DNA of 35,659 nt from a virus: the IMG/VR virus record IMGVR_UViG_3300024520_000256; one strand, written 5' to 3'. The stretch's first letter is position 1. The number at the start of each line of letters is the position of its first letter. Made by a program: the position numbers and the translations under genes. This document shows positions 3,727 through 26,307 of this stretch, in pieces. Below the pieces are notes generated by a model. It made no database searches. It was given only the letters and a program-made list of their open reading frames with translations, and was not told the origin of the DNA.

Positions 3727-4056
3727 TTATCCAAATTCCTTTTTTAGTTGAATGTATTTTTCTTTTCTTTCTTCTTTCTCTTGAATTTCTCGTGCTTTAT
3801 TTCTTTCTTTTTGTTCTCTTGTCATTGATTCTAAACGTTTTTCATACTCTTTTTTATCCACAACACCTAAACAAAGAAGCTCTGCAAGGTTGAGTTCTGA
3901 CTCTTTGTAAAACTCCATTTCTAAATCGCCACAAAAAGACGTAATATCAACAACAGCAAATTTTCCACTTTTAAAATGAAAGCATATATATTCATCCTCT
4001 ACTACCTTTTTTATAGTTTCACCCTGCATTGATTCAAAATCCATTATAAATTCCAT
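3727..4056 (-). CDS. Hypothetical protein
   Basis: ORF track; abuts the downstream gene with no gap. Confidence 0.6.
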   Translation of the reverse strand: MEFIMDFESMQGETIKKVVEDEYICFHFKSGKFAVVDITSFCGDLEMEFYKESELNLAELLCLGVVDKKEYEKRLESMTREQKERNKAREIQEKEERKEKYIQLKKEFG

Positions 4057-4065
4057 TTTATTCCT

Positions 4066-4455
4066 TTATGATAATTGTTCGTATAGAGTGTTCATAGCTT
4101 CTTTGTTTGGATGTTTTAGTAGTGTAATTGTAGATTTATCTTTAATCTTTATTTGCAAACAGTGAAACCTTAGCCATTTATTAGAATCTTCTTTTATGTG
4201 TCCGAGTTCAACTAAAGCATCAACAATGCACTGAGAAGATTCAACAAGCTCACCTTCATCATATCGCTTGTCGTTGTAGAATCTAGCCAGGGTCCAATAA
4301 CTCAAACCCTCTTCTTCACCTTGATTCATAATCTCATTAAGGCTAAATTTTATTACTTCGGAAAATTCCTCATAATCTATTATTACCCCGTTTTTATACA
4401 CTGGCTTGTTTATAGTCGGGATATCCATATTGAAAATAAGAGCTTCAGATTTCAT
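4066..4455 (-). CDS. Hypothetical protein (possible RusA-like resolvase; weak)
   Basis: YDEGELVESSQCIVDALVELGHIKEDS...IKIK loosely parallels RusA D.DN..K...DAL...G...DD, but Glu replaces the catalytic Asp residues. The gene sits among recombination genes. Confidence 0.25.
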   Translation of the reverse strand: MKSEALIFNMDIPTINKPVYKNGVIIDYEEFSEVIKFSLNEIMNQGEEEGLSYWTLARFYNDKRYDEGELVESSQCIVDALVELGHIKEDSNKWLRFHCLQIKIKDKSTITLLKHPNKEAMNTLYEQLS

Positions 4456-4778
4456 GATATTAAATCCACATATTTTTTATCACTGATATTTTTAGCCATT
4501 CTTCTCTTACTCATGTGTACATAACTATTATTATCTGTTGTCTCTTCTACAGTGAATTTATTCACAACTTCCCCTTTTTTGTTTACTTGGCATATTTGCA
4601 ATACTGCATTTTCAGTTGTTACCTCTAACTTCCCCATAAACTCCTTAAATTTTTCAAAGTCCTGAAACTTTAATACTTCTCGTAAAAATCTTCCAAAAGC
4701 GTCGAAAGGTTGTTTTCCATGAATCTCTACTAATTCCTGAAAATTCTTTTTGATAATAAAAGTTTTTGGTATTAACAT
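4452..4778 (-). CDS. Hypothetical protein
   Basis: 108-aa ORF; ATGA overlap with the downstream gene. Confidence 0.55.
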   Translation of the reverse strand: MLIPKTFIIKKNFQELVEIHGKQPFDAFGRFLREVLKFQDFEKFKEFMGKLEVTTENAVLQICQVNKKGEVVNKFTVEETTDNNSYVHMSKRRMAKNISDKKYVDLIS

Positions 4779-4896
4779 TTTCCGCTCTCCTGATTAATTG
4801 TTGTAAAGCTCTTATCCTATCAGGGGCAGCGCCAAAAAACAACGCTTCTTTCAATTTGAATTTATTCCAATCTAATATACTGCTTTGTAAATCCAT
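4654..4896 (-). CDS. Hypothetical protein, first ORF after element B. Its 3' part overlaps 4452..4778 out of frame.
   Basis: ATG 4896 lies 7 nt after an AAGGGG SD, directly downstream of element B. Only about the first 39 codons are non-overlapping. Confidence 0.4.
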   Translation of the reverse strand: MDLQSSILDWNKFKLKEALFFGAAPDRIRALQQLIRRAENVNTKNFYYQKEFSGISRDSWKTTFRRFWKIFTRSIKVSGL

Positions 4897-4906
4897 TTCT
4901 CAACCC

Positions 4907-4950
4907 CTTGTTATATATAAATTATATATAATATTTATATAAATATCAAG
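4907..4950 (-). promoter_or_regulatory. Triple-TATATAA element, copy B
   Basis: Boxes at 4914, 4925 and 4936, flanked by CTTG 4907..4910 and CAAG 4947..4950. The minus strand reads a perfect TTGATA-17-TATAAT. Confidence 0.65.
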
Positions 4951-4971
4951 AAATATTATGTTAGGATTATA

Positions 4972-5373
4972 TTAATTTTGCGGTAAATTATAAATCGTTA
5001 TTATACAATCCTTTCCTTTAATTATTTTAGTTAGTTCTTTTTCTGCGCTTCCTTGTATAACTTCCGGCTTAGGTCTAAACTTAGCCGTTAAAATACAGCC
5101 TTCAGTATTTAAATGTGTATTTCCCCCATGGAGTCTTATTCCTGTGAATTGAGGGACATTTAATAATTCTGGCATTATCCTTTTAAATCGATTTGAATAA
5201 GAGGTAGTCACTTTATACTCACCTTTTATGATAGCCGTATGTTTTGGAATTTTAATCCATTCAGGCCTCACAACATCTTCGAGGGTCCATGAAAACAATT
5301 CACCATCTAAATAAAGCTTTCCTATTGTTGTTTTAAGAAAATACTCAAGTCGATATAAATCTAATTTTATCAT
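4972..5373 (-). CDS. DUF5675-like protein with a YkuD-like H-G-N...G-C motif; possible cell-wall enzyme
   Basis: TIGKLYLDGE..WTLED....IP.HTAIIKGEYKV..SYSNRFKR..PELLNVPQFTGIRLHGGNTHLNTEGCIL matches my memory of DUF5675. The start is set at ATG 5373 because the track start is TTG. Confidence 0.55.
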   Translation of the reverse strand: MIKLDLYRLEYFLKTTIGKLYLDGELFSWTLEDVVRPEWIKIPKHTAIIKGEYKVTTSYSNRFKRIMPELLNVPQFTGIRLHGGNTHLNTEGCILTAKFRPKPEVIQGSAEKELTKIIKGKDCIITIYNLPQN

Positions 5374-5450
5374 TTTTAGCCTGTTCAATTCTAGAAACTA
5401 AAGATTTGTTCACTTTTAAAGTAATCAAACCCCTAGTTAATATTACTATC

Positions 5451-5720
5451 TCATCCTTGGCGTAGTACTTCATAAACGATTTTATATACCTGGTCAAAGT
5501 TAATAAGAGTCGATTCAATAATTTTTTCTTCAATAAAGGCCTCCGTTATCTCAGTAGCTTTTTCATGTAAAGAAACCGTTTGCTTGTCCAATAAAGCTTC
5601 CACTTCCTCACGTCTTGCCCTCTCTAAATCCAATCTCAATTGCATTGCTTCCATTGCTTTAATCATGGGGTAATCCCCTCCCGGCTTATATTCTTTGTCT
5701 TGATAATAACGTTTTGCCAT
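5451..5720 (-). CDS. Hypothetical protein
   Basis: 89-aa ORF, closely following the upstream gene. Confidence 0.55.
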   Translation of the reverse strand: MAKRYYQDKEYKPGGDYPMIKAMEAMQLRLDLERARREEVEALLDKQTVSLHEKATEITEAFIEEKIIESTLINFDQVYKIVYEVLRQG

Positions 5721-5724
5721 ACAT

Positions 5725-6408
5725 TTAATCTAGATTATTTTGTTGAGGTTCTTCAGCGCTTGTTTGTTGAGCCTTTTCAGCACTCGCTTTCAGAGCTATT
5801 TCAATATGCTTATCGAATATTTCATTGATTCTTTTATCTTTGGTAAATTTATCACCATAACCTTTCTCGCCTTTTTTCCATAAAATATCCAATGATTTAG
5901 GATTCTTTTGCACAATTTTACATTGTTTATCAAACTCTTCGTGATTTAGCTCTCTTGGCTTTTGTGGAGCTGGTTTCTTTATTTGGGGCTTTCTTCTTTG
6001 TTGTTGTTCTGAATACCCTTCTAACTCCTCCGCTAAGACCCCTTCACCAACTGCATCTCTAAGAGCCCTACCCTTTGCCCTAGTTTCCGCCATTCGGACA
6101 ATATGAGGTTTTATGAAGTCACTTACATTACCTGGTGCAGCGTCCCCAATCCCGGTAAATGTTTTTAATATTTCTTCCCCTAATTCCCCCTCATCCATTA
6201 TCACAACAGCTCTAAACATTGCCACATTTTTATCATTTTCGTAGGGGTTCATAATCATTTCAGTTTCAATTGACTTTAAGCCCATCCTATGAGCCTTTTT
6301 AAGAACTCCGTTGTAAGTGACATAAGATTTACCTTTTATGTCAATCGTATCACCGGCTAATTCATCTGGATGGATTGCATTTTCACGGTTATGTTTTCTT
6401 TCATTCAT
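5725..6408 (-). CDS. Putative single-strand annealing protein (ERF/Rad52-like superfamily)
   Basis: GIGDAAPGNV....HIVRMAETRAKGRALRDAVG resembles the conserved core of ERF-type recombinases. The gene lies near other recombination genes, with SSB further downstream. Confidence 0.45.
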   Translation of the reverse strand: MNERKHNRENAIHPDELAGDTIDIKGKSYVTYNGVLKKAHRMGLKSIETEMIMNPYENDKNVAMFRAVVIMDEGELGEEILKTFTGIGDAAPGNVSDFIKPHIVRMAETRAKGRALRDAVGEGVLAEELEGYSEQQQRRKPQIKKPAPQKPRELNHEEFDKQCKIVQKNPKSLDILWKKGEKGYGDKFTKDKRINEIFDKHIEIALKASAEKAQQTSAEEPQQNNLD

Positions 6409-6759: not shown

Positions 6760-7641
6760 CTAAAATAACTCTGGGATAGATTTCTTTACTTTCATGATAA
6801 CATGTCTTTTTAATTGTTTGTAATCAATTTGAGGGTCTTTATTTTCCTTAATGAAATTCCATGACTCCTCTCTGATAAGGTCATAATAAACCGTGTTAAG
6901 TAGTCTAGGAATATATTTAGTTCTCCAACCGTCTTCAGCATTCCGAATCTTCTCATAGACCTTTTGAACAAAGTGAGGGGTGATATATTTATCTGTAATT
7001 TTCTTTTCTACAGCCAATTTTTCTTTAATATCCAAAGGGTCATTCATTGCTCTGTGTTTATCTTTGAATTCATTTCTCACAATTTTAGCCCAAGTTTGAC
7101 GGCCATATTTATTTTGATAAGAATAATTCTTAAGCACAACCCCCTCACCAATTCCTTCATCAATTAGATAAGTGTTTTTCTCACACATTTCATAAAGAGT
7201 TTCTGGTTTTGCGTCTTCAATTCTACACAAAGGAGGAATGAATTCTATTTCAAATTCTCTTAAAACATGGGCATAGTCATTATAATGAATTACCCCACTT
7301 GGACCGTAAACATCAAATACATAGAACTTTCTCCAAGCTGTTTTTCTATATGTCTTCAAAGAATGAGGGATTAACCATTCACCAAATAAACGCCAATCAG
7401 GATAGAGTAAGAGCAAATTGGCAAAACGCTCATCTTCAAGAATAGCCTTCATAAATCCTTGATTGTCATCATCTAAGGAAAGCTCACGATTTCTTGAACC
7501 ACACTTTAGCTCGTTCCCTTTTCGCCATACAGAGCCGTTTGACCCGTCTAGTTTAGGGAATACATAAACAACGCCCTCTTCAATTCCTTTTGTTTCTACA
7601 GTTTCATATCTTTCAACATGCTGATATCTTTTGAAATTCAT
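6760..7641 (-). CDS. RNA ligase, Rnl2-like nucleotidyltransferase family
   Basis: Motif I KLDGSN (Lys30), motif III LFGEWL, IIIa FYVFDV, IV EGVVLK and V WAKIVR, in the order expected for T4 Rnl2-type ligases. Confidence 0.75.
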   Translation of the reverse strand: MNFKRYQHVERYETVETKGIEEGVVYVFPKLDGSNGSVWRKGNELKCGSRNRELSLDDDNQGFMKAILEDERFANLLLLYPDWRLFGEWLIPHSLKTYRKTAWRKFYVFDVYGPSGVIHYNDYAHVLREFEIEFIPPLCRIEDAKPETLYEMCEKNTYLIDEGIGEGVVLKNYSYQNKYGRQTWAKIVRNEFKDKHRAMNDPLDIKEKLAVEKKITDKYITPHFVQKVYEKIRNAEDGWRTKYIPRLLNTVYYDLIREESWNFIKENKDPQIDYKQLKRHVIMKVKKSIPELF

Positions 7642-8186: not shown

Positions 8187-8222
8187 TATATAGGTAATAT
8201 ATAATAATTATATAGGCTTGAC
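8187..8222 (-). promoter_or_regulatory. Triple-TATATAA element, copy D (divergent: outer boxes are TATATAGG and there is no clear -35)
   Basis: Boxes at 8187 (TATATAGG), 8198 (TATATAAT) and 8209 (TATATAGG). The 11-bp phasing is the same as in the other copies. Confidence 0.55.
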
Positions 8223-8596
8223 TATACCTTTCTACATTTGACATTAATTAGAAAGTCTATATGTGAAGTTAAATCTTCCATTTTATCTTTACATAAATAA
8301 GTGTCATAACCACTTAAGCCTGCAACTGTGGTAATGCTTTCTTCATGTCCTGTAAGGATTAGGAGGGGAATTCTAAACTTAAACTTAAGCTCAACTAGCT
8401 CCTGGTTTAGTTTATAGCTTTTGTCAGGCAAGTTAACATCTAATATGATTAAATCATACCTGTTTCTTTTAAGGGCTTCTAGTCCCTCTGTAAGGGTGTA
8501 TTTTGATTCACAGTCATAATGGCCTTCGACCTCCATTTTAGACTTTATACCATAACAAAACCCTTCATTGTCATCTATTAGGATTATCCTTTTCAT
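8222..8596 (-). CDS. Stand-alone response-regulator receiver (CheY-like REC) domain protein
   Basis: Asp8-Asp9 (ILIDDN), Asp53 (LIILDVNLPD), Thr82 (LLILTGH) and Lys103 (YLCKD) have canonical REC spacing. At 124 aa there is no output domain. Confidence 0.8.
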   Translation of the reverse strand: MKRIILIDDNEGFCYGIKSKMEVEGHYDCESKYTLTEGLEALKRNRYDLIILDVNLPDKSYKLNQELVELKFKFRIPLLILTGHEESITTVAGLSGYDTYLCKDKMEDLTSHIDFLINVKCRKV

Positions 8597-10491: not shown

Positions 10492-12882
10492 TTAAGACAT
10501 GTTTTTAGCTATTGTTTTTCCCATATATACGGTTCCATCCCATATCAATTCTACTAAATCTACTGCATTTATTGCGTTTGTAGGTACAAAAGCCCCATCT
10601 GTTGCATCCCAAATAACCGTTCCCGGCCAGGTAAAAGTTGTAGTTGGAGTAGACGAGCCTTGACTAAACTTAATGAAATACCTTGTTACAACAACGGGAT
10701 TACTTAAAGTTACTGTTGAAATAGTGGCTTCGTCACTTAAATCTAAAAGAACACCTTGCCCTGAATTCCAATTAATAGCTAGGGTAGTGCCGGAAGCAAC
10801 AACCCCCTGACCTAAAAAAGAGTCTTGACCATTTACAAAGAAATTTCCATTTGGAATCGATACATTTTCACTAGTATCTATTTTAATTCCGTTGTTGGTT
10901 CCTAAAGAACCTGAATTACTAATAACAAAAGCATCTGTATCAGAATTATGTAAACCAAAAGTCCACCCCCCACTTGTGCCAATTCTAGCACCAAAGTAAG
11001 AGTCACCCGTTGTTTCACCACTTGGAACAGATGTTATTATTCCAGAACTAGTAGAGCTTGCATTTTGTTCGTGAAGTAAGGCACCTGTAGCAAAACTTAA
11101 ATCCTCATTAGCCCAATAAGCTTTGCTTCCTTTAAAGCTGACCTCGTTAAAATTTCCAGAAATAGCAGAATAGTTTGCTCCGTCTGGCTCTAATGTTGAA
11201 TCATCAGAAGTTAAAGCACCAACAAATAAATTCATTGTGCCACCTGTGACTACATTAAAAGTACTCGTTGGGCTGGCCGTTGTAGTTAAAACATGAGCAT
11301 GCAAAACAGATAAATCTAATGTATTTGTAGCATTTAACTTAAAAACTGAATTTGTTCCTGGGTCATCAAGAAATAGAGAACTGATACAAACAGAACCACC
11401 ATTCATTAAGAAAGCATTTGTTAAAGAATCAACCACACTACCAGAAAAGAATAAAGAAGAGGCATTTTCAACTGTAACCCCGTTTTCTTGGTCATTTATA
11501 GACACTCCACTACATACAACCCCTTCGGCACCATTTACATATAAACCACTAGTTCCGGAACCTTTATCAGAATCTAAAACACAGTTATTTAAATTTGCTC
11601 TAACTGTAGCAGAATCAAAAGCGATTCCATATCGTTGAATGTTTGTTGTTCTTACATTTGTGATATTTGTATCAATAGCAGTTGCTAGACTTATTCCATC
11701 TTGGAATCCAGAAATATAAACATTCTCTATCTCTAAGCTTTGGCAATCGTTTGTAGCAATTGCAATGTTAGTTTTAGCAGCATCACTTTGAAAACCTATA
11801 TCCCTAATCGATGCAAAATCAACCGTTGTTCCTGTACTTAAATCAAGTGCATTATCAGAGTTTACAGCATGTTTAATTTGAGTTGTAAGAGGGCCAGAGC
11901 CAACCAGCTGAATATTATCAGTGGTTATTTGTAGGCTTGAACCAATATTAAATACACCCGCCCTTAATTTTACTGTTTTAAGTTCTGCGCTTCCAGCTGC
12001 TGCATCAATTGCGGCCTGAATCTCTTCAACATCATCCGTTGTCCCATCTCCAGTAGCTCCAAACCATTCTCCATAAATAGCATCAGAAGATCCTTCTCCA
12101 AATACATAACTTCCAGCACCTGTAAAAAATGTACCACAAGTTTGGTCTATTGTGGAGTTTATTGTAAGGGTTGTTCCACCATCTGCACTTAATTTGGCAT
12201 CCCCACCCCTTCTTAAACTTAATCCAGCTGGAAAAGTAACGCTACTTGAAAACTTAAATGTTCCATTATCGAATAATATGTCATGCTCTTGCCCTGAAAC
12301 ACTCACATAAGTAATTACTTTACTGACATTTGTTTCGTCATCTGTTGCACCGTCCCCAGTAACTCCAAACCATTTAACATTAATTGGGCCTTCAAATAAT
12401 CGAATCCAACGCCCTGTCCCACTATCAGGAGCGAAAACAATTCCTCCATCAGCTGTTGCGCTACTATCTGGGTCAAAATAAAACAACCCTCCGCCTCCAT
12501 CACCTGCAGTTGTAAAGCCTGTGACCATGGCCATAACACTAGTTCCATTTGCTCCAGGGTTAACAGCAGTCATCAAAGCAATTGATTCATAACGCCTAAA
12601 GTCTTGAGCTGCTGAAGAGATATTATCTACCGTCCAGACATCAACCTCAGCATCCGTTCTTAGTATAAATTTATAAGAACCATCTTCTAGCCAAATATCA
12701 GCTTCACCCCTGGAGTTTAAAACCGTTGGGTGAGCATTTGCGCTTACCGAAGATTGACTTGGGAATGTATCCTTTGGGTTAGAAGTTCCCGCTGCAAAAG
12801 CATATAGTTTATAACCGTTGGCAAGATTCCCACTAGTATCTAAAGCCTGAAACTTTGGCCAGGGTGTTAAAACATTCGCCAT
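10492..12882 (-). CDS. Tailspike / tail fibre with a pectate-lyase-like right-handed beta-helix (putative depolymerase)
   Basis: Two copies of the beta-helix cap motif: WFGVTGDGATDDETNV at aa 171-186 and WFGATGDGTTDDVEEIQAAIDAA at aa 273-295. Also GDGGGGLFYFD....GRWIRL and a long repetitive N/T/S/G-rich body. Confidence 0.8.
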   Translation of the reverse strand: MANVLTPWPKFQALDTSGNLANGYKLYAFAAGTSNPKDTFPSQSSVSANAHPTVLNSRGEADIWLEDGSYKFILRTDAEVDVWTVDNISSAAQDFRRYESIALMTAVNPGANGTSVMAMVTGFTTAGDGGGGLFYFDPDSSATADGGIVFAPDSGTGRWIRLFEGPINVKWFGVTGDGATDDETNVSKVITYVSVSGQEHDILFDNGTFKFSSSVTFPAGLSLRRGGDAKLSADGGTTLTINSTIDQTCGTFFTGAGSYVFGEGSSDAIYGEWFGATGDGTTDDVEEIQAAIDAAAGSAELKTVKLRAGVFNIGSSLQITTDNIQLVGSGPLTTQIKHAVNSDNALDLSTGTTVDFASIRDIGFQSDAAKTNIAIATNDCQSLEIENVYISGFQDGISLATAIDTNITNVRTTNIQRYGIAFDSATVRANLNNCVLDSDKGSGTSGLYVNGAEGVVCSGVSINDQENGVTVENASSLFFSGSVVDSLTNAFLMNGGSVCISSLFLDDPGTNSVFKLNATNTLDLSVLHAHVLTTTASPTSTFNVVTGGTMNLFVGALTSDDSTLEPDGANYSAISGNFNEVSFKGSKAYWANEDLSFATGALLHEQNASSTSSGIITSVPSGETTGDSYFGARIGTSGGWTFGLHNSDTDAFVISNSGSLGTNNGIKIDTSENVSIPNGNFFVNGQDSFLGQGVVASGTTLAINWNSGQGVLLDLSDEATISTVTLSNPVVVTRYFIKFSQGSSTPTTTFTWPGTVIWDATDGAFVPTNAINAVDLVELIWDGTVYMGKTIAKNMS

Positions 12883-16048: not shown

Positions 16049-16890
16049 TATTTAATTCCACCTTGTAAGGCCAAAAGAGGGAGTAGTTGCTGAATAGTTC
16101 CGAATGGGCCACCCATAGCTCTACCCTGTGCAATTTCACGAGCGGAGCTAATATTGCCTAATGCCTGTTGACTTTGGGCTAGTTGTTGCCCTTGTCCTAC
16201 AAACTGACCACCGATTGAAGAAGCCAATTGAGGCCCAACGTTTGCGAGCCCTGCTAATGTACTTATTGGGGCTTGTTGTTCTGCAAATTGTTGACGCCTT
16301 CCAGCTAATAATTCACCAAACCTTTGACCCTGTGTTTGTGCTGCGAGTTGTTGCTGTGCTAAATTCTGCCCAAACTGTTGACCTTGTTGAGACTGAAAAC
16401 GATTAAAAGCTTGCCCCGCTTCTTGAGAGGCTAACCCTTGGTTAAACCTTAAAGATTCCTTTATGGCTCTTCCACCTAAAGCCCTACCTTTAGATGCTCC
16501 AAATCTTTCCAAAGCTTGTTCACCTTGTTGCTGTCTAAATTGAAAACCTGGGTCTTGTCCTAATATATCTTGAAGGGTGAATTGTTGTTGCCCTTGTTGG
16601 GGTTGAAAAGCTTGCGTTCCAGGTTCCAATGCTTGAGGCTGTTGCCCTAGTTGTTGGGTTGTTAAATCTTGTAGCGTTTGAAATGCTTGTTGCCCTCGTC
16701 TTAGAAAGGGTTGTTGAATTCCTAAAGCTTGTTGGAATTGTTGTTGTTGTTGCTTTTGTCCCTTTTCAACTGCTCTTGTTTGAATCCTTGCCGCATCTCT
16801 AGCAGATTCACCTTCAATTAAATTTTTAGCTATTCCAGAAGCTAATAACCCGCCACCAATCGCTAAAGCTGTTCCCGTTGCAACCGCCAT
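16048..16890 (-). CDS. Gln/Gly-rich internal virion protein candidate (gp7 position)
   Basis: N-terminal hydrophobic AIGGGLLASGIA. The DPGFQFRQQQGEQALER...GRALGGRAIK pattern recurs in podovirus internal proteins (from memory). Extensive Q-rich low complexity. Confidence 0.45.
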   Translation of the reverse strand: MAVATGTALAIGGGLLASGIAKNLIEGESARDAARIQTRAVEKGQKQQQQQFQQALGIQQPFLRRGQQAFQTLQDLTTQQLGQQPQALEPGTQAFQPQQGQQQFTLQDILGQDPGFQFRQQQGEQALERFGASKGRALGGRAIKESLRFNQGLASQEAGQAFNRFQSQQGQQFGQNLAQQQLAAQTQGQRFGELLAGRRQQFAEQQAPISTLAGLANVGPQLASSIGGQFVGQGQQLAQSQQALGNISSAREIAQGRAMGGPFGTIQQLLPLLALQGGIK

Positions 16891-17357
16891 TAATCTAACT
16901 CCTTAACATAATGAGTCTCTATTTCTCTATACCCTTTTTTTGTATAGATAGACTTTAATTTTTCAGGCATTAATTCATTAAGATGAACCATTGTTAATCT
17001 TTTAACCCCTAATTCCTCACTGATTTCTTCAAACCTATTTAAAAGCCGAAGCCCTCCGCCCCTATGCTCTTTTCTCATATACCAAAACGTTTCTGTAGCA
17101 GATAGCTCACCATCTAGAATATCTTCATAAAAGATAAAGCCAAACATTCCAACGATTTCGCCTTTTTTATGAGCTTTTAATATTATTCCCGTTCCGTTAT
17201 TGTAGAAGTTAATCCAATTTCTTTTGAAAACATCTTCTTTAAATGAGAAAGAGCTGTTCGATTCTTCAACAAACTCATAGCCTAGAGGGTATAATTGCTC
17301 GATATCCTGTACTTCTAGGATATCTATCTGTAATTTTTCATTAATTGTTTCTACCAC
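16890..17357 (-). CDS. GNAT-family N-acetyltransferase
   Basis: Motif A: MRKEHRGGGLRLLNRFEEISEELGVKRLTM (R-x-x-G-x-G type acetyl-CoA loop), preceded by beta strands IVGMFGFIF. GTG start with an AAGGAA SD. Confidence 0.7.
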   Translation of the reverse strand: MVETINEKLQIDILEVQDIEQLYPLGYEFVEESNSSFSFKEDVFKRNWINFYNNGTGIILKAHKKGEIVGMFGFIFYEDILDGELSATETFWYMRKEHRGGGLRLLNRFEEISEELGVKRLTMVHLNELMPEKLKSIYTKKGYREIETHYVKELD

Positions 17358-17440: not shown

Positions 17441-17917
17441 TTAAATAATAATCCTATAGTTTCCCGTAATTGATATTGAATCAGTCACAGTTGCCCATGT
17501 TGGAGTATAATGTCTTACCTTCCCATTTAATGTACCTGTGCTCTTTAGAACAGGCCCTGAACCGATACTAATATTGGTTGATATATTGTCTGTTTGGCCT
17601 TGCCCATCAACAGCAGAGAGAAAGGGTAAATTATTTATATATGTGGTTCCCGCTGTACTTGAAGTGTTTGTACCTGGAACAATTTTTACATCAAAAAAGA
17701 CCATGGTATTGAACCTATAATAATTTCCTGTAATTGTTGCCGTCCCTACTTCAGTCAAACTCGTAAACGTTGGAGTGAATGATATGACTTGACTATTTCT
17801 TTGCCCAAGCATCTTTTCAATACTTGTAAACCATTTTCCCCACACAAGACCTAAGCCATTCATTCCGAATAATTGGGATTGAATAGGTGCTGGGTTTATA
17901 TATTCTTTTGCGTCCAT
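17441..17917 (-). CDS. Hypothetical virion protein
   Basis: 158 aa, beta-rich; TAATG junction with the upstream gene. Confidence 0.45.
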   Translation of the reverse strand: MDAKEYINPAPIQSQLFGMNGLGLVWGKWFTSIEKMLGQRNSQVISFTPTFTSLTEVGTATITGNYYRFNTMVFFDVKIVPGTNTSSTAGTTYINNLPFLSAVDGQGQTDNISTNISIGSGPVLKSTGTLNGKVRHYTPTWATVTDSISITGNYRIII

Positions 17918-19065
17918 TAATTTCTTAAAGCCTTACTTTCAATTGTTCCACCCGTAATAGCTACTTTCACCTTGGATGTAGTTTGAATTTCATAAACTCT
18001 ATTTCTTGATGTTCCGAGCCTATCCCACCTAACCCTAGTTTCATACTCTCCTTTTTTACCCATTGAGCGCCAATGCTCATTTCCCCAAGACCTAGCCCCA
18101 TTTTCTGACCATCTAAGTCTTATTTGTGGGTCTACATCTGGACCAGCCACAATAGTGTAATTAACAGCTGAGCTCGTTCCTTCAGTTGTTGTCAAAGTGA
18201 CAGGATGAACCCCCAATTCTAAACCGGGAACCGTCACCCCTGTTATTAAAGTGGGGTTGTATGTTGTTCCTGTAACTGCCGTTCCATCAAAATCAATTGT
18301 GGGGTCAGCAATTGAAGGAGAATTTAAAAGGTTTGTTCTATCTGAAGAGGTTAATAAATAATTATCATAATATCTGAAATCATCAATTTGACCGTCAAAA
18401 TAATTAGCAACTCCAGAACCATAATCTGAAGCACCTACCCTTAAAAATCCTGTTGTAGAATCAAAAGTTGAAGATGTACCAGGGCCAATAGTTGAAACAT
18501 TATCAATATAAACAGTAGTTAACATTGTTCTAGGAGAAGAAAAAAGGGTTCTAGTTACGATAATATTATACCAAGTATCAACAACCATTGAGCCACCGCG
18601 AGCAGTAAAACTAGGAGGAGTATTGGGTCCATAGTAATAATTTATCCTACCTGAAGCATCCACATAAAGAGTTTGAGCGTTAGTGTCTACAGTTGTATCT
18701 CCATTTTGGAAAATAACCATTGAATCCCTTAATACGTCCATCTTAATCCAAAAAGACATAGACCAAGTTCTTAAATCATCAGTGGTCCCCATAATTCCAG
18801 GGTGGGTTAAAGTGCTCGTTACATACTGAGAAGTTCCATTTAAATTTATTGCTTGATTTATTTTACCCGTTACATATGTGGGAGAACCCGAACTCGTTTG
18901 AGCGTAGTTTCCTAATGCGTCTGTATCATCCCCGTCAAAACGTAGGTGCATACTTCCAGCGTTGCCAACTGTAGGTTCTACTTTTAAATCGGTTCCTATT
19001 ATTCCAAATGTAGAACCAACAATACCCCTATTGGGTTGTAAGCTTGTGATTGCTGGGGCGGTCAT
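17917..19065 (-). CDS. LamG (concanavalin-like lectin) domain protein with IPT-like segments and a gp10-type C-terminal module
   Basis: LRFDGDD...INLNGTSQYV...WSMSFWIKMD...YFDGQIDDFRYYD is the Laminin_G_3 pattern. The last 70 aa are paralogous to the 77-aa ORF 19065..19298. Confidence 0.6.
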   Translation of the reverse strand: MTAPAITSLQPNRGIVGSTFGIIGTDLKVEPTVGNAGSMHLRFDGDDTDALGNYAQTSSGSPTYVTGKINQAINLNGTSQYVTSTLTHPGIMGTTDDLRTWSMSFWIKMDVLRDSMVIFQNGDTTVDTNAQTLYVDASGRINYYYGPNTPPSFTARGGSMVVDTWYNIIVTRTLFSSPRTMLTTVYIDNVSTIGPGTSSTFDSTTGFLRVGASDYGSGVANYFDGQIDDFRYYDNYLLTSSDRTNLLNSPSIADPTIDFDGTAVTGTTYNPTLITGVTVPGLELGVHPVTLTTTEGTSSAVNYTIVAGPDVDPQIRLRWSENGARSWGNEHWRSMGKKGEYETRVRWDRLGTSRNRVYEIQTTSKVKVAITGGTIESKALRN

Positions 19066-19298
19066 TAATTCCTCAATGGCTTAGTTTCGATTGTTCCGCC
19101 TTTTATTGCAACTTTTACGGGAGCCGTTACCCTTATCTCATAAATCCTGTTTCTCGCTACACCTAAACGATTCCATTTTATTCTCTTTCTATACTCACCC
19201 TTCTTGCCCATTGGAAGCCAATGTTCATTACTCCAATTTCTGGCTTTATTATTTGACCATCTAAGCATTATTTGGGGGTTAGATTCTGCTTCAGCCAT
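19065..19298 (-). CDS. Stand-alone copy of the gp10-type C-terminal module (77 aa)
   Basis: PQIMLRWSNNKARNWSNEHW..MGKKGEY.KR.KWNRLG.ARNRIYEI...VKVAIKGGTIE. 48 of 70 positions are identical to the C-terminus of 17917..19065. TAATG junctions on both sides. Confidence 0.65.
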   Translation of the reverse strand: MAEAESNPQIMLRWSNNKARNWSNEHWLPMGKKGEYRKRIKWNRLGVARNRIYEIRVTAPVKVAIKGGTIETKPLRN

Positions 19299-20542
19299 TA
19301 GCTTGTTAACCCCACACCTGTTTCCATAACAATTTGTAAACTATTATGTCTTACTCTTTTTTCATCTGAATCTATGTGCTGACAAGTTCTAATTCTTGGT
19401 ATTCTATCCCCATTATCATCATAAGTATTTGTATCAAATTCATAAATAAGAGGTTTACTGTGGTCTCCAACTAATACTTTATTGAATGCTGAAATAGCAT
19501 TTATTCCTCTATGCTTCTTGAGGTTTCCCGTTGAGGGTTGTAAATAGGCTTTCTCATGCCAAACCCCTGTAACTTCATCATAACAAAATGTCATTTCGTC
19601 AGCTTGGAATGATAATGTATAAACTGGATGCCCTTCTAATTCGTATGTATACCCAACAGCATCTTCAGGAGTAGACATTTCATTTATCTTTCTTTCAATT
19701 GGGTGGGTACTTATTCTTTGTGATTGAAAGTTTACACTTTTGTAAATGCTACCAATTCCTTGTTCACTTCTTCCCAACCAGAAAATAGAATCATTCATTT
19801 TGGCAGCGGAATATCTAGCCAATATACCACGCTCAATTATAGCTCCTGGTATTCTTTCCATTGGGAAATCGTTGTTTCCCGTATCCTGAAAAACTTCAAC
19901 ACCATTTGAACCAAGCAACCAAATGTTTTGATTAGTGATTAAGAAAGATTCAATTATATCCGGGTTGCTTTCAGCTGTTCCGAAATCTAAAGCGTTCCAT
20001 GTAGTACCATCCAACAGCCCAGAGATAAAGAAGTCTTGTGTATTAAGTTGATTAACTAGAAAGAACTGGTCTAAGAAACCTGCATGTGTTGGAGAGCTTG
20101 GAAACCCTCCAGAGTTTGGAAAGTTGGTTGTGTTTATTTCCAATAATGTATTAGTGGTTAAAGTAAGTAGATATCCATTGAACCCATCCACAATCAACAA
20201 CTCAGAACCATTATCAACCATACTGACAGTTCCAATAGTTGTATTAATTGTACCTAGATTTGTTTCTATTCCTGAGCTATTAACCTCATAAAGAATATTT
20301 CCAGATACTGTAAAATACCTTCCTTTTGCTGTTTTATATTGACCCCTAATCCCTCCGCCTGTAGTCAAATTGGCAAATAGCTTTAAGCCTGGAGTTCCGT
20401 ACATTATTTGACCATCTGTATTTTGAGACTCTGGAGGAGCGTATTCTAAATATAGATTTACAGACCTTTGAGCCGCAAATGGTAAACTTCTGGCCTCATA
20501 AGCAGGCCCAAGAAAAGGAAACTTCAAGAAATAGTACTCCAA
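19298..20542 (-). CDS. P22 gp10-like tail hub / packaged-DNA stabilisation protein; body only
   Basis: FLGPAYEARS...NLY.E........MYGTPGL... is the N-terminal pattern of the phage stabilisation protein family. The gene follows the gp4-like adaptor, as in P22. Confidence 0.55.
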   Translation of the reverse strand: MEYYFLKFPFLGPAYEARSLPFAAQRSVNLYLEYAPPESQNTDGQIMYGTPGLKLFANLTTGGGIRGQYKTAKGRYFTVSGNILYEVNSSGIETNLGTINTTIGTVSMVDNGSELLIVDGFNGYLLTLTTNTLLEINTTNFPNSGGFPSSPTHAGFLDQFFLVNQLNTQDFFISGLLDGTTWNALDFGTAESNPDIIESFLITNQNIWLLGSNGVEVFQDTGNNDFPMERIPGAIIERGILARYSAAKMNDSIFWLGRSEQGIGSIYKSVNFQSQRISTHPIERKINEMSTPEDAVGYTYELEGHPVYTLSFQADEMTFCYDEVTGVWHEKAYLQPSTGNLKKHRGINAISAFNKVLVGDHSKPLIYEFDTNTYDDNGDRIPRIRTCQHIDSDEKRVRHNSLQIVMETGVGLTS

Positions 20543-21237
20543 TAAAAGTCTTCGTCAAGCCCATCAGAAAAAACATCATCAAATATTGTAGGAGTTCTTT
20601 CATAATCATTATTAACATCTTCAAGAAGTGCTTTAAGTCTACCCGCTTCATCTTTTACAGCTTGTTCAACTGGAGCCCCGTATTCATAACTCAACCTAAT
20701 AGCTAAGGCATAGATTAAAGCATATTCATAACCAGGCGGCAAGCTAGCAGAAGTTGCCAACGTTGAGAAAGCTGTAAATTGTAGTTCACTTGTAAAATGA
20801 AGAGTATTAGCAGTGTTTGGAGTTGGATACAATGTTATTGTTCCATTTGGATACCCTGGATTATAAAACAATGTACTAGGAATATCTGATTTATTTGTTT
20901 TCTGGAAAATTCTATCAAATTCACCTTTATTGACAACCCTTAAACTATAATCGACGTTGCTAGAATCACGAATAAAAGCCGATATAATTCGGGTTGGTCT
21001 CGTTGTGTCAATAGTGGCACCTGAACCAATTGTATAACTGGCCGTTGTTGCTACTAATGTATGACTTCCCTCTGTCTTCTGGAATGTCATCAACTTCTCA
21101 ATTGACCACGATTCTAGAATATAATTTAAAACAATCCTAGCATCTTCTGATTGAGATGCCTGAAGTGTTTCACCATCCGCTAATATTCCTGTGAGCCTAA
21201 AGGCCCTATTGATTAGCTCCTGTGCTGTTGCTGCCAT
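20524..21237 (-). CDS. Head-to-tail adaptor, P22 gp4-like
   Basis: ELINRAFRLTGILADGETLQASQSEDARIVLNYILESWSIE parallels P22 gp4 [40 protein letters not shown] (from memory). The start at ATG 21237 lies 9 nt after AAGGAG. Confidence 0.6.
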   Translation of the reverse strand: MAATAQELINRAFRLTGILADGETLQASQSEDARIVLNYILESWSIEKLMTFQKTEGSHTLVATTASYTIGSGATIDTTRPTRIISAFIRDSSNVDYSLRVVNKGEFDRIFQKTNKSDIPSTLFYNPGYPNGTITLYPTPNTANTLHFTSELQFTAFSTLATSASLPPGYEYALIYALAIRLSYEYGAPVEQAVKDEAGRLKALLEDVNNDYERTPTIFDDVFSDGLDEDFYWSTIS

Positions 21238-21694
21238 CTTCATCATCTCCTTCAATAAGGATTTCAGTTTGTTTTATCATATTCAATAAGGAAAACTTTT
21301 TATCTAAATCTTCACCTAAATGTACAGAAACAAGCTTTTCCAACTCGGATTTCTTAGCACTCAATTCATCACCTCTAAAGGTTTTGCTATCAACAGAGTC
21401 TTTAAAATCATCCAGCCATTGAAGAGTTTTTACCGAACTAGCTAAACTAGTCACTTCAACCTTAGGAGCTTCTTTAGCTTTTTTTAATTCAGCTTCAAAT
21501 ATTCTGCTTTCTTTAGGGCTTTTCTTATAGTTCTTTGAAACGTATTCATCGTAAGATGCTTCAGTTTCAATGAGAACACTATCACATATCCCACTAACTT
21601 CTCTATGAAGCCACTTTCGTTCAAAGCTCTCTTCTCTTAAGAGAAATTCTTTTTTAAACAACTCTTTCAACTTTAAATATTCTTGGTCTGTCAT
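21206..21694 (-). CDS. Hypothetical head-module protein
   Basis: 162-aa charged helical ORF between the decoration-like gene and the adaptor. Confidence 0.5.
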   Translation of the reverse strand: MTDQEYLKLKELFKKEFLLREESFERKWLHREVSGICDSVLIETEASYDEYVSKNYKKSPKESRIFEAELKKAKEAPKVEVTSLASSVKTLQWLDDFKDSVDSKTFRGDELSAKKSELEKLVSVHLGEDLDKKFSLLNMIKQTEILIEGDDEDGSNSTGANQ

Positions 21695-22222: not shown

Positions 22223-23413
22223 TTATGCTCCCCAAAGCCTTACAGCCCAACGAGGAATTACTGTTATGAAACCATATAAAATATCTAAGCGGTAAAGCAT
22301 GTCATCATTTTTACCGTCCCAAACTTTGGCCAATCGCATAGAGATACCGTCAAAATTCATCCTTGACTCGAAATCTGTCATACCTGGAAGAGGTAAATCA
22401 ACAGTTGCAATAGTAAAGGCTTTTTTATGATAAATCATGTTTTGGTCAAAAGCAGTTGAATTAGTTCCTAACTCAGCAATAACAGCACTAGAAGCTGGAA
22501 GAGCATCAACATTTTGAAGAGGTCCCTCAGCATACATGGCAGGGTCAACAGAAACTGTTCCCGCTCCGCCTGCATAGTCAGCCGTAACAGTAAATTCTTT
22601 CAATCCGCCAGTAGTTTGTTTACTAAGTGGATTAACTTGGTTTACTGCTGCAACAGTAAGGATATCACCTTTTGTGAAGGTTCCCGTTCCTGTTGTTACT
22701 GATAAGGTACTAGCCCCTTCAGAAGCTGCCGTATTTATAACATAGTTCCCATCTCCAGTTCCAACCGTATGACGATTAACATTCACAGACTCTGCAAATT
22801 CTAATCCAGCCATTGTTCCCATGTTACCAGTAACAAATTGATTTCTCAATTGGCTTCTGTCTTCGAAACGATTTGTTCCAAGACCGTTAACTAGGGCACT
22901 CATTCCATCAGGAGAAAGAACCGCTGAGCGTTCAGTTTGAGGGGTTGAATTTTTTGTCAAATATGCTTTTGCATCTGTAAAAGGAAGCATAGTTGCTGGA
23001 TGAGTTCCGGGTGTTCCTGTATGGTTTGCCACTTGTTGGTAAGCATCTGTAAAGCATTCATATTCAATCCCACTAGATAAAGTATTCATTGCGGGAGTAA
23101 TAATTTGTTCGCTAAACATTGAAATGTCTTGCTCTAGTTCTGCCGTTGAGAAACGAAGGTCAACACCGCGATACCTGGTTTTACTCAAAGTAACACTTTG
23201 TTCCTTGTTGTCTTGTACGTCCACTGTTTTACCTGAACGCATTTTATATTCTTTTGGCACCTGAATCTTAACAAAATCACCTGCTTTTGCACCTGCTACT
23301 TCATAGGAGTCATCATACTCTCTACCAATACCTTGCAAAAAGGGTGTATTGTTCTTAAACTGGGCCAAACCTTCTTTGACAATTATATCTGCCGTGATTT
23401 GTTCGTTAGCCAT
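22223..23413 (-). CDS. Major capsid protein, P22 gp5-like coat
   Basis: 396 aa following the scaffold gene, with a strong AAGAGG SD. The layout resembles P22 coat, for example FTKGDILTVAAVNQVNP.. against KRGDKISFAGVKFLG.., and it ends in a hydrophobic C-terminus. Confidence 0.75.
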   Translation of the reverse strand: MANEQITADIIVKEGLAQFKNNTPFLQGIGREYDDSYEVAGAKAGDFVKIQVPKEYKMRSGKTVDVQDNKEQSVTLSKTRYRGVDLRFSTAELEQDISMFSEQIITPAMNTLSSGIEYECFTDAYQQVANHTGTPGTHPATMLPFTDAKAYLTKNSTPQTERSAVLSPDGMSALVNGLGTNRFEDRSQLRNQFVTGNMGTMAGLEFAESVNVNRHTVGTGDGNYVINTAASEGASTLSVTTGTGTFTKGDILTVAAVNQVNPLSKQTTGGLKEFTVTADYAGGAGTVSVDPAMYAEGPLQNVDALPASSAVIAELGTNSTAFDQNMIYHKKAFTIATVDLPLPGMTDFESRMNFDGISMRLAKVWDGKNDDMLYRLDILYGFITVIPRWAVRLWGA

Positions 23414-24234: not shown

Positions 24235-26307
24235 TTATGCGGGTTCACCGCGAGGTTTGACTAATTTGTCAATCGAAACGGATTTACCCGCCTTGATTAG
24301 TTCCTCTCCTAGTTCCCCTCTAGAATCAATAACTTGTGTTAGAACGTCCTTCTCATCCTGTCTATCTTGTAATTCTAATTTAGTTTCGTTATCCAGTTTC
24401 TTACCAGCCAACATTGCCTGGTTTTTCTCATCTGCTATTTCTCTTTGGATTTCTTGATTTTTTATAAATTCTTTTAACTGTTCGTTCTCTTGTGAGAGAA
24501 TATCAACTTGTCCCTTACTTTGAACGAGTAACTGGTCTTTTTCCGCTTCACTTAAGTTTTCACTCTCTGGGTCTGGGAATATTTCAGGGTTTGTTTGTCT
24601 AAGTTTAGCTTGTGACCTATCAGCCCATTCTTCACTGCCATTAAAATCTTGACCTCTAATAATTAAATCAGCTCCAAGTGCTGCCGCCTCTGGTAAAGCT
24701 TGAGCTGTAGCTTGCATAGCTTCAGCGGCATCTTTACGTTTAGTTGCAAAGTCTGGACCAACATCAATATCAACGTCATATCTTCCAACATTTAAATGAA
24801 ACAAATCCCCTTCATTGTCTTCACCTGGCTCAGCGTTAAAAGTAACCATCTCTTCAACGCCATCATCACCTAAGATTCTAGTGGACCGCTCAACATCCAT
24901 AATTTTTCTAATGATATCAAAAACTACCACATATGTTTGCTTGACTGACATATTGAAATTATCAATGAAATCATACGTTGTTATTTCACCCTGAGCCACC
25001 CTATTATCAATCGCTATTCCTGATATTTCTTGCCCTTGGTCTCCAACAACTCCATCTGACATTCCCATTGTATCTTTAATATCTATCTCAGATGATTGTG
25101 CTGCTGCAATATATCCAATTGGAGCATCTGGAGGGGGTACGATTTGAGGGGCTGGAACTAAAACACCACCAATTGCGATTGGGTCGTATTCTTTTGTTTG
25201 AGTTGGGTTTCTATTCCCATCTTTCCAACCTGGGTCTGATTTAAATTGGCCCTTGGCTCCTATGTATTCTGTTTTATTAGCTTGATTAAGTTTCTCAGCT
25301 TCAGAGCTTCGCCAATAATTGTACATTCTTTGTGAATCTTTGGATTTTCTAATGAGTGAAAGAAGATACAATTTATTATTAATTACCTTCCTTCTACCAA
25401 ATACACCAATAATAGGAAACAATGTTCCCGGTAAATCTTCTTCTTCTAATACTTCAATCGCGTTTAGTTTGGCCCAATGCCAGGTTTTTCTAACTGTTGG
25501 TCTTGTGTTCCCGGTTATAATCGAATCAAAATCAATCCCATCTTTTACCATATCGGATTTAAAAGCAATGATTTCTTCATCTGGGTCTTCTGCTTTGGGG
25601 TCAGTATATTCAATCAGTTCATCATGAATCTTTTTCATGTAGTAATATTCAACAACTCGAATAAAGTCTTTACCCATCCATGATTTTTTGGAATCCCCTA
25701 GATTATTTCCAGAGAAATCATTCATTTCTGCATCTGGAAACTCTTGTTTGAATTCATCTTTGGGCATATCGTGAGTAATAAAACCCCATTCACAATCGCT
25801 AGCCGTTGGGCTTTCATAACTTGGGTCTAATACAACTGAGTTGGGATTGACGATATATTGAATGTCAATGTCTTGGTCAAAAGAATCATCACTTACAAAC
25901 TTTGTTAATACTCTATAGAATCCAAAGGAACTTTCAACAGCATTCTCAAAAGCTTGGGCCGCAACCATATCAAATTTTGAATTCTTTAGGGATTGTTTTA
26001 TAAGTCCTTTGATTTTATCAGCTGTCTTTTTATCTGACTTATCATCTTCCGGAGATATTTTAACACCGGGTTTATTTAATCGTACTTCGTTTGATATTCT
26101 TTTTAGATATTTGAATTGTTTATTAATTTCAAGACAAGGGCGGTTTCTATCTCTTCGCCTTCTGTTTTTCTTCATCTTGTCTGTCCATGAAGAAATATAT
26201 AAGAACTTTTGGTCTGATAATGAGTTTTCTACATTATGAACATTCGCATCTGAGCCAGCCTTATACCTGTCAACAGCCTCCTGAATAAAGCTATCTTGTG
26301 CACCCAT
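24235..26307 (-). CDS. Portal protein (P22 gp1-like, with a long C-terminal helical extension)
   Basis: 690 aa directly after TerL. The C-terminal ~120 aa form a continuous charged helix (LSEAEKDQLLVQSKGQVDILSQENEQLKEFIKNQEIQ...), like the P22 portal barrel. Confidence 0.8.
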   Translation of the reverse strand: MGAQDSFIQEAVDRYKAGSDANVHNVENSLSDQKFLYISSWTDKMKKNRRRRDRNRPCLEINKQFKYLKRISNEVRLNKPGVKISPEDDKSDKKTADKIKGLIKQSLKNSKFDMVAAQAFENAVESSFGFYRVLTKFVSDDSFDQDIDIQYIVNPNSVVLDPSYESPTASDCEWGFITHDMPKDEFKQEFPDAEMNDFSGNNLGDSKKSWMGKDFIRVVEYYYMKKIHDELIEYTDPKAEDPDEEIIAFKSDMVKDGIDFDSIITGNTRPTVRKTWHWAKLNAIEVLEEEDLPGTLFPIIGVFGRRKVINNKLYLLSLIRKSKDSQRMYNYWRSSEAEKLNQANKTEYIGAKGQFKSDPGWKDGNRNPTQTKEYDPIAIGGVLVPAPQIVPPPDAPIGYIAAAQSSEIDIKDTMGMSDGVVGDQGQEISGIAIDNRVAQGEITTYDFIDNFNMSVKQTYVVVFDIIRKIMDVERSTRILGDDGVEEMVTFNAEPGEDNEGDLFHLNVGRYDVDIDVGPDFATKRKDAAEAMQATAQALPEAAALGADLIIRGQDFNGSEEWADRSQAKLRQTNPEIFPDPESENLSEAEKDQLLVQSKGQVDILSQENEQLKEFIKNQEIQREIADEKNQAMLAGKKLDNETKLELQDRQDEKDVLTQVIDSRGELGEELIKAGKSVSIDKLVKPRGEPA

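Follow-up and report, generated by a model that had tools for sequence, protein, structure and literature searches.

A P22-type tail hub encoded without its C-terminal module, and two proteins that could supply the module in trans

The P22-like tail hub is usually treated as a conserved structural hexamer of a single chain, which raises the question of how a hub that is encoded in pieces could be put together and what the pieces might be for. The question arises in the IMG/VR virus record IMGVR_UViG_3300024520_000256, a stretch of 35,659 nucleotides (nt) that we call the window. Its minus strand carries in succession a hub body of 414 amino acids (aa; 19298..20542), a 77-aa protein (19065..19298) and a 382-aa protein with a lectin-fold domain (17917..19065). 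The first-pass annotation had described three consecutive genes coupled by TAATG, and its coordinates and junctions stand: the sequence TAATG lies at both ends of the 77-aa gene, towards the body and towards the 382-aa gene, and again where the latter meets a 158-aa gene (17441..17917), position 17917 included. We find that the body ends where the C-terminal module of a hub should begin and that the module exists twice, once free and once at the end of the lectin-fold protein; the two versions probably fill the same vacancy on the body in trans.

The body corresponds to positions 5-400 of the 486 in phrog_578 ('head closure Hc3'; E 1.6e-96), reaches 29.6 bits against the cut-off of 25 for Pfam PF11134 (Phage_stabilise), and matches in the PDB 9vyg_M, the Pam1 'needle head' 7eeq_1, P22 gp10 (8tvr_S, E 3e-8) and Sf6 gp8, which bears out the resemblance to P22 gp10 that had been read from its sequence. 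The piece that it lacks is next to it. The 77-aa protein matches phrog_578 at positions 402-472 (E 8e-17) and carries a precomputed Pfam assignment to PF11134, and in the 382-aa protein it is residues 310-378 that correspond to positions 402-470 (E 1.5e-13); this second module (aa 310-382; 17920..18138, minus strand) is modelled with a predicted local distance difference test score (pLDDT) of about 77-91. On a hidden Markov model (HMM) that we built from 45 one-piece hubs, the body occupies positions 2-396 of 471, so its N-terminal extension is kept, and the modules occupy 395/398-467, with nothing missing between them: the split is at a domain boundary. No module continues the body in the same polypeptide, which ends in ...IVMETGVGLTS followed by TAA, at profile position ~396-400. 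The hub's C-terminal module has been detached into an open reading frame (ORF) of its own, as had been suggested, and a second copy does end the lectin-fold protein.

The two modules are paralogues, identical at 48 of their last 70 positions (BLASTP E 9e-37), which on recounting is exactly the figure obtained earlier by hand. Their nucleotide identity is 66%, among the 48 conserved residues only 23 share their codon, and the proportion of synonymous differences (pS) is 0.85, a saturated value, with a non-synonymous divergence (dN) of 0.24. All of the positions that are nearly invariant in the family are kept in both copies, and six contigs, drawn from several ENA samples, encode an identical 77-aa protein, each time between the same neighbours. 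Taken together, saturated synonymous sites, low dN, retained residues and six identical contigs indicate that both copies are real genes, an old pair under purifying selection, rather than a remnant in decay or a product of misassembly. As a separate observation on this family, its members start with a canonical Asp-box (SxDxGxTW, e.g. RWSDDGGHTWS) and bacterial sialidases in the PDB are also picked up by the module profile, through their Asp-boxes; the boxes in the window are degenerate (SNNKARNW and SENGARSW, approx. 19230..19260 and 18070..18100).

Upstream of its module, the 382-aa protein contains a Laminin_G_3 (PF13385) domain of the LamG, concanavalin-like lectin fold at residues 77-237 (18355..18837, minus strand; E 6.2e-13, 49.6 bits against a gathering cut-off of 27.6). 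The native sequence gives no Pfam match to IPT/TIG (PF01833). In-silico excision of residues 33-247, which joins the N-terminal segment to aa 248-310, brings out a TIG match that spans positions 1-83 of the 84 (E 1.8e-6; 28.3 bits, cut-off 20.9). The N-terminal part of the domain lies at about aa 1-32 (18970..19065) and the C-terminal part at about aa 252-308 (18142..18312), both on the minus strand. Removal of the LamG domain also yields an IPT/TIG match in two homologues: P0004, which shares the domain architecture (42% identical residues across 99% of the query), and P0021, whose segment equivalent to the C-terminal part matches TIG directly (E 3.9e-8). Because the joined segments give a full-length match, in both homologues too, the protein is one IPT domain with LamG nested in an early loop and the module following directly. 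The earlier description of a LamG domain flanked by IPT-like segments is therefore right about the domains present, and is amended in that the flanks are the two halves of a single IPT/TIG domain. An AlphaFold2 (AF2) model built on a 33-row alignment (a single-sequence run gave pLDDT 30) has a mean pLDDT of 66.9, being confident in the LamG core (about 62-89) and the module and poor in the IPT segments. For the LamG part, the PDB structures that Foldseek ranks highest are pentraxin, CBM40 modules that bind sialic acid, and LNS domains from neurexin/agrin (E about 1e-6 to 1e-7; template-modelling score to the target about 0.5-0.6), which supports a beta-sandwich fold.

Where would such a module sit in an assembled tail? 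A profile of 30 module sequences matches Pam1 7eeq_1 at residues 367-438 of 442 (E 2.4e-15), 9vyg_M at residues 369-438 of 446 (E 4e-13) and, weakly, Sf6 gp8, the orthologue of P22 gp10, at residues 433-471 (E 0.085). The similarity to the C-termini of gp10-family hubs, on which the first-pass annotation had staked its proposal, is thus present. The same annotation had named a specific C-terminal pattern of P22 gp10; its core, Y.KRV.W.RVGR, can be seen when a single module sequence is aligned to Sf6 gp8 (E 1.3, not significant alone), and P22 gp10 gives no direct match to the module, though the body reaches 8tvr_S. The Sf6 hub protomer consists of a six-bladed beta-propeller and an apical 'lamin B1-like' domain, which is made jointly by N- and C-terminal extensions from blades 1 and 6; this Ig-like domain wedges between two of the subunits that make up the head-to-tail adaptor and occupies only every second adaptor interface (PMC9728967). 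By homology, the module would be the C-terminal half of this adaptor-binding domain, so the lectin is expected at the collar between hub and adaptor and not at the needle. It had been placed where P22 has its needle gene, which is correct for the position of the gene and, judging from Sf6, not for the place of its product in the tail.

Is the split peculiar to one genome? One-piece hubs are found in cultured relatives (Rhodoferax phage P26218, the Manatee Spring podophages and several Vibrio phages), and a module scan of IMG/VR returned 80 loci, of which 78 have one-piece hubs, one is partial and one (L059) shows a change of frame, so the split is rare among the nearest IMG/VR relatives. A scan of genome contigs found a single one-piece hub, in a Planctomycetota metagenome-assembled genome, and nothing that pointed to a host, and an IMG/VR scan with an alignment of the LamG protein found distant LamG domains only and no module. 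Split hubs do occur in closer metagenomic relatives, whose bodies are 62-65% identical to that of the window. In L003 the adaptor is followed by a 401-aa body (...IVMETGVGTTT) and a 373-aa IPT-LamG-module protein; in L006 the end of the body, a stop codon and a 22-nt spacer precede a 599-aa IPT-LamG-LamG-module protein; neither has a free module. L007 repeats the three-gene layout of the window, with the end of a body, a 74-aa free module and the start of an IPT-LamG protein. One might have taken the LamG copy as the optional extra, and L003 and L006 reverse this: since they lack the free module of the 77-aa type, the free copy seems to be the dispensable element in close relatives, where the LamG-module protein alone could supply the module. 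In L003, the LamG-module gene is followed by another (4227..4757) with an IPT-like start and a Laminin_G_3 domain, an indication of a second cargo protein whose C-terminal end lies beyond the contig.

More distant layouts vary the same theme, with adhesin-type cargo domains that include PKD plus LamG, PKD, and fn3/He_PIG. The 36.9-kb contig L100 encodes the adaptor, a 405-aa body (hub positions 2-396) and a 1193-aa He_PIG/fn3 protein whose terminal module is the only one found within 19.6 kb around the hub; with L003, L006 and L007 it shows that the split recurs in related phages, as the original observation had proposed to check. L102 (38 kb) has a 260-aa piece (positions 355-470), a body (4-356) and a 574-aa piece (358-469), and L002 has a body to position 359, two unrelated genes, and then pieces of 237 and 116 aa that both cover 361-470. 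In L108 (1..3653), three genes each end in a hub C-terminal piece (~355-470), with one unrelated 339-aa gene among them. Two further loci, L103 (2110..2760, 216 aa) and L109 (7001..7534, 177 aa), encode two tandem modules in one protein directly after a module-less body; stapling of two neighbouring hub subunits by such a chain is one possibility. Module copies that reside in the same genome are mutually nearest in the window, L102, L103, L108 and L109 (55-74% identity), a pattern that holds in five of the six genomes with two or more copies. The free modules of the window and of L007 form the most distant pair of modules (33 of 70 positions identical), and the comparison of modules, whose 70 residues are too few for a dating tree, gives no evidence of a 'free-module clade'.

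A broader survey indicates that the module is often found apart from a hub body. Searched against 1.84 billion cluster representatives, the profile of the two window modules recovered 4193 proteins (E<=1e-3), and we classified the best 150 of these with the hub HMM. Canonical one-piece hubs account for 50; another 11 are one-piece or 5'-truncated hubs with an insertion of 53-440 aa exactly at the junction of body and module, and 4 have insertions elsewhere in the hub. Proteins in which a non-hub N-terminal region beginning with Met leads into the module number 29 (the hub match begins at profile position ~396 in 14 and at ~360 in 15), short free modules 17 and tandem modules 2, so that at least 48 of the best 150 are pieces of the trans-acting type; the remaining 37 are ambiguous fragments. 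That such proteins belong to split hubs is confirmed by the gene neighbourhoods of L100, L102, L002, L108, L103 and L109. Among the one-piece hubs, P0022 (757 aa), P0078 (706 aa) and P0084 (712 aa) carry 53-260 aa of cargo between profile positions ~396 and ~398. The junction insertion of P0016 was considered as an IPT relic and set aside, its similarity outside the module being unconvincing. The family phrog_19101 (595 positions, function unknown) has a hub module at ~521-593, so that cargo-plus-module proteins already make up at least one of the existing families of phage proteins. We found no description of a split gp10-type hub in the open-access literature, and the use of the module as a plug-in, which recurs widely, is apparently undescribed.

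These observations lead us to favour a hub in which each body subunit has a single vacancy, which a bare or a lectin-bearing module fills in trans; we consider this probable, if well short of certain. The hexameric hub of P22/Sf6 type would be built from two polypeptides rather than one, the body providing the six-bladed propeller and the N-terminal extension without the last ~70 residues. In one-piece hubs those residues and the N-terminal extension together make up the Ig-like ('lamin-like') domain lodged between two adaptor subunits; here the missing half-domain would be contributed either by the 77-aa module or by the 382-aa protein, with its IPT stalk and LamG lectin-fold head. With one vacancy on each of six bodies, the two proteins would be alternative, mutually exclusive occupants, and hubs in the virion could be mixtures of bare and lectin-decorated subunits. 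The decorated subunits would project arms outward from the collar, beside the tailspikes, where they would probably bind surface glycans weakly and reversibly, in addition to whatever the 796-aa tailspike binds. Several comparisons speak for individual parts of this arrangement. The junction must face outward, since one-piece hubs accept insertions of 53-260 aa there. The pieces of L002, L102 and L108 include the last propeller strands (~355-470), for which each body has a single place, and this argues for one shared vacancy. A cargo-bearing module can be the sole module, as the layouts of L003, L006 and L100 indicate, and a free module alone suffices in the Xylella phage Xfas53, where the 72-aa gp37 is the only one. 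The clustering of co-resident copies, finally, fits co-adaptation to a shared partner.

On a larger scale, P22-like podophages could widely use a plug-in of this kind, an empty-slot body onto which a portable C-terminal anchor clips exchangeable adhesins by fold complementation. The anchor would be the C-terminal half-domain of the hub itself, alone or together with the last propeller strands, and the cargo that we considered for it ranges over LamG, PKD and fn3/Ig arrays that reach about 1100 aa. One to three anchors per genome would then provide, within a single phage population, mixed or tunable sets of adhesins, and a bare 77-aa 'blank' would set their occupancy. This generalization we offer tentatively, as something that may well be so but that we would not yet call probable.

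Four points weigh against the one-vacancy arrangement or parts of it. The direct match of the module to the P22 and Sf6 hubs is weak (E 0.085 to 1.3), and the structural role is therefore transferred by way of family profiles and the Pam1 and 9VYG hubs. The LamG fold alone does not specify a ligand. Repeated independent duplications could give the same clustering of co-resident copies as co-adaptation would. Lastly, the tandem modules of L103 and L109 suggest two modules per chain, which one vacancy per body does not explain.

This last point leads to the strongest competitor, in which both module proteins are present in every virion at different positions and in a fixed 6+6 stoichiometry. For instance, the 77-aa protein would complete the Ig-like domain, and the module of the LamG protein would occupy the six free adaptor-adaptor interfaces or stack on the first module. 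That the Sf6 hub domain leaves every second adaptor interface free (PMC9728967) makes room for such a scheme, and both the double-module proteins (216 and 177 aa) and the retention of two or three copies in several genomes speak for it. We nevertheless regard it as unlikely. In L003, L006 and L100, which have no free module, the cargo-bearing module must be able to fill the primary site; every copy in L002, L102 and L108 also has the last propeller strands, for which there is a single vacancy per body; and the homology with Sf6 makes the module no more than one half of an Ig-like domain, in need of the N-terminal strands of the body.

A second alternative dispenses with assembly in trans: a -1 slip of the ribosome near the end of the body gene could join the body to the 77-aa ORF and produce a one-piece hub, leaving the 382-aa protein as an optional competitor or an unrelated fibre. 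The 77-aa frame is indeed -1 relative to that of the body and stays open over the 14 codons that precede its ATG, where a G_GGG run lies. A comparable configuration is seen in L059 (IMGVR_UViG_3300009093_000023; 3728..6246), where an 807-aa ORF joins body and LamG, the module lies in a different frame, and its motif NPQAMLRW begins upstream of its first Met; the cause would be a programmed frameshift or else, in a hub that is really one piece (body-LamG-module), an assembly error of 1 nt. In the window, however, the overlap offers the G_GGG run only and no canonical X_XXY_YYZ slippery heptamer, and the 77-aa ORF starts at an ATG of its own, which overlaps the stop codon and falls exactly on the domain boundary. 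Nor is a shift site conserved among split hubs: L006 has a stop codon and a 22-nt spacer, Xfas53 an ATGA overlap after its cargo, and L003 again a different geometry. A frameshift that re-fuses the body with the 77-aa ORF is thus quite unlikely, and less plausible than separate sites for the two modules. Least credible of all is that only one module is functional and that the 77-aa ORF is a duplicate in decay or owes its existence to an error of assembly or frame, as the one-piece hubs of the nearest cultured relatives and of 78 of 80 IMG/VR loci, and the lack of a free module in L003 and L006, might suggest, because the protein is identical in six contigs, has diverged to synonymous saturation with a dN of 0.24 and every family-conserved residue kept, has a 74-aa counterpart at the same place in the diverged L007, and because discounting it would still leave the body without its C-terminal module.

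We return, then, to a single vacancy filled in trans, and to the surroundings in which such a hub would be made. The hub gene follows directly after the adaptor in a morphogenesis block of P22 type (portal, scaffold, coat, adaptor, hub, ejection-type protein and tailspike), an ordered minus-strand series that the terminase opens. The portal (24235..26307), the scaffold gene and the coat (22223..23413), all on the minus strand, are followed by two small genes, also on that strand, and by the 243-aa adaptor (20524..21255, minus strand; Pfam SU10_adaptor E 3.5e-10, phrog_12985 E 1.7e-49), onto whose 12-mer the Ig-like domain of the hub is expected to dock. The 414-aa body was first called from TTG 20542; the true start is most likely TTG 20527 (MKFPFLG..., 409 aa), which agrees with gene calls on other assemblies and with the start of the L003 orthologue and gives a TTGA overlap with the adaptor stop. 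With this start, overlapping start and stop codons link the genes from the adaptor through the body, the module and the LamG protein to the 158-aa gene in one chain.

The 158-aa protein that closes the chain (minus strand) has a weak PHROG match and no Pfam match. It shares an N-terminal motif, ~P..V....G(L/M).T..W..F, with otherwise dissimilar proteins encoded after the hub in L059 (6243-6578), L100 (11582-12013), L104 (7419-7739), L107 (1454-1729), L108 (3654-4067) and also L102, and it may be the plug, needle/fibre or fibre-attachment protein that follows the hub in relatives; no gp26-type needle of P22 is recognisable in the window. Beyond it come an ejection-type protein (phrog_598), two large genes without assigned function and the 796-aa pectate-lyase-fold tailspike (10492..12882, minus strand), whose N-terminal anchor is conserved, being shared with L059, L100, L102 and L104. 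Between the 158-aa gene and the ejection-type gene, and so inside the block of tail and ejection genes, lies a gene for a 155-aa GNAT-family acetyltransferase with a GTG start (16890..17357). The non-structural region encodes a lone response-regulator receiver protein (8222..8596, 124 aa; Pfam Response_reg E 1.3e-11) and an RNA ligase (6760..7641, 293 aa).

If part of the hub fold is routinely provided in trans, short tails would have a new route for attaching host-recognition accessories besides the N-terminal anchors of tailspikes. It would also explain many unannotated small ORFs and 'hypothetical' Ig or lectin proteins beside hub genes, Xfas53 gp37 and phrog_19101 among them, and would provide a natural split-domain display site, an engineering handle for adding binding domains while leaving the tailspike untouched.

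Among known systems, the closest are the hubs of P22 (gp10), Sf6 (gp8), Pam1 (7EEQ) and 9VYG, which resemble that of the window in gene position after the adaptor, in their propeller body and, by profile, in their C-terminal module; the surroundings are also like those of P22, with portal, coat and ejection genes of its type. The known gp10-type hubs are, however, single polypeptides of 442-472 aa, whereas in the window the last ~70 aa are separate and present twice, once on an IPT-LamG cargo. The cultured, P22-like Xfas53 has a hub that is likewise split, with the module in a separate ORF overlapping the upstream gene. Its gp36 consists of the body (positions 3-389) and an Ig-like extension of ~250 aa, and gp37 (L105 3492..3710), labelled only 'conserved phage protein' in GenBank, matches hub HMM positions 403-469 (E 3e-22). 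Unlike the window, where the split precedes the cargo, Xfas53 splits after it (body and cargo, then module) and has a single module. One-piece hubs with junction insertions carry cargo at the same point, but in one chain, so that every subunit bears it and there is no bare alternative.

Conserved anchors with exchangeable receptor-binding parts are also a feature of the head-binding domain of P22 and Sf6 tailspikes and of T7 gp17. Those anchors are N-terminal, and the one described here differs in being C-terminal and a fragment of the hub's own fold. T4 Hoc places Ig-like accessory domains on the virion, and T7 10A/10B are mixed short and long forms of one protein. The window recalls Hoc in setting adhesin-type domains (IPT, LamG, PKD and fn3 across the family) on a structural scaffold, possibly with partial occupancy, although the candidate display site is the tail hub and not the capsid; and it differs from 10A/10B in that its two forms come from a duplicated anchor gene and not from frameshifting.

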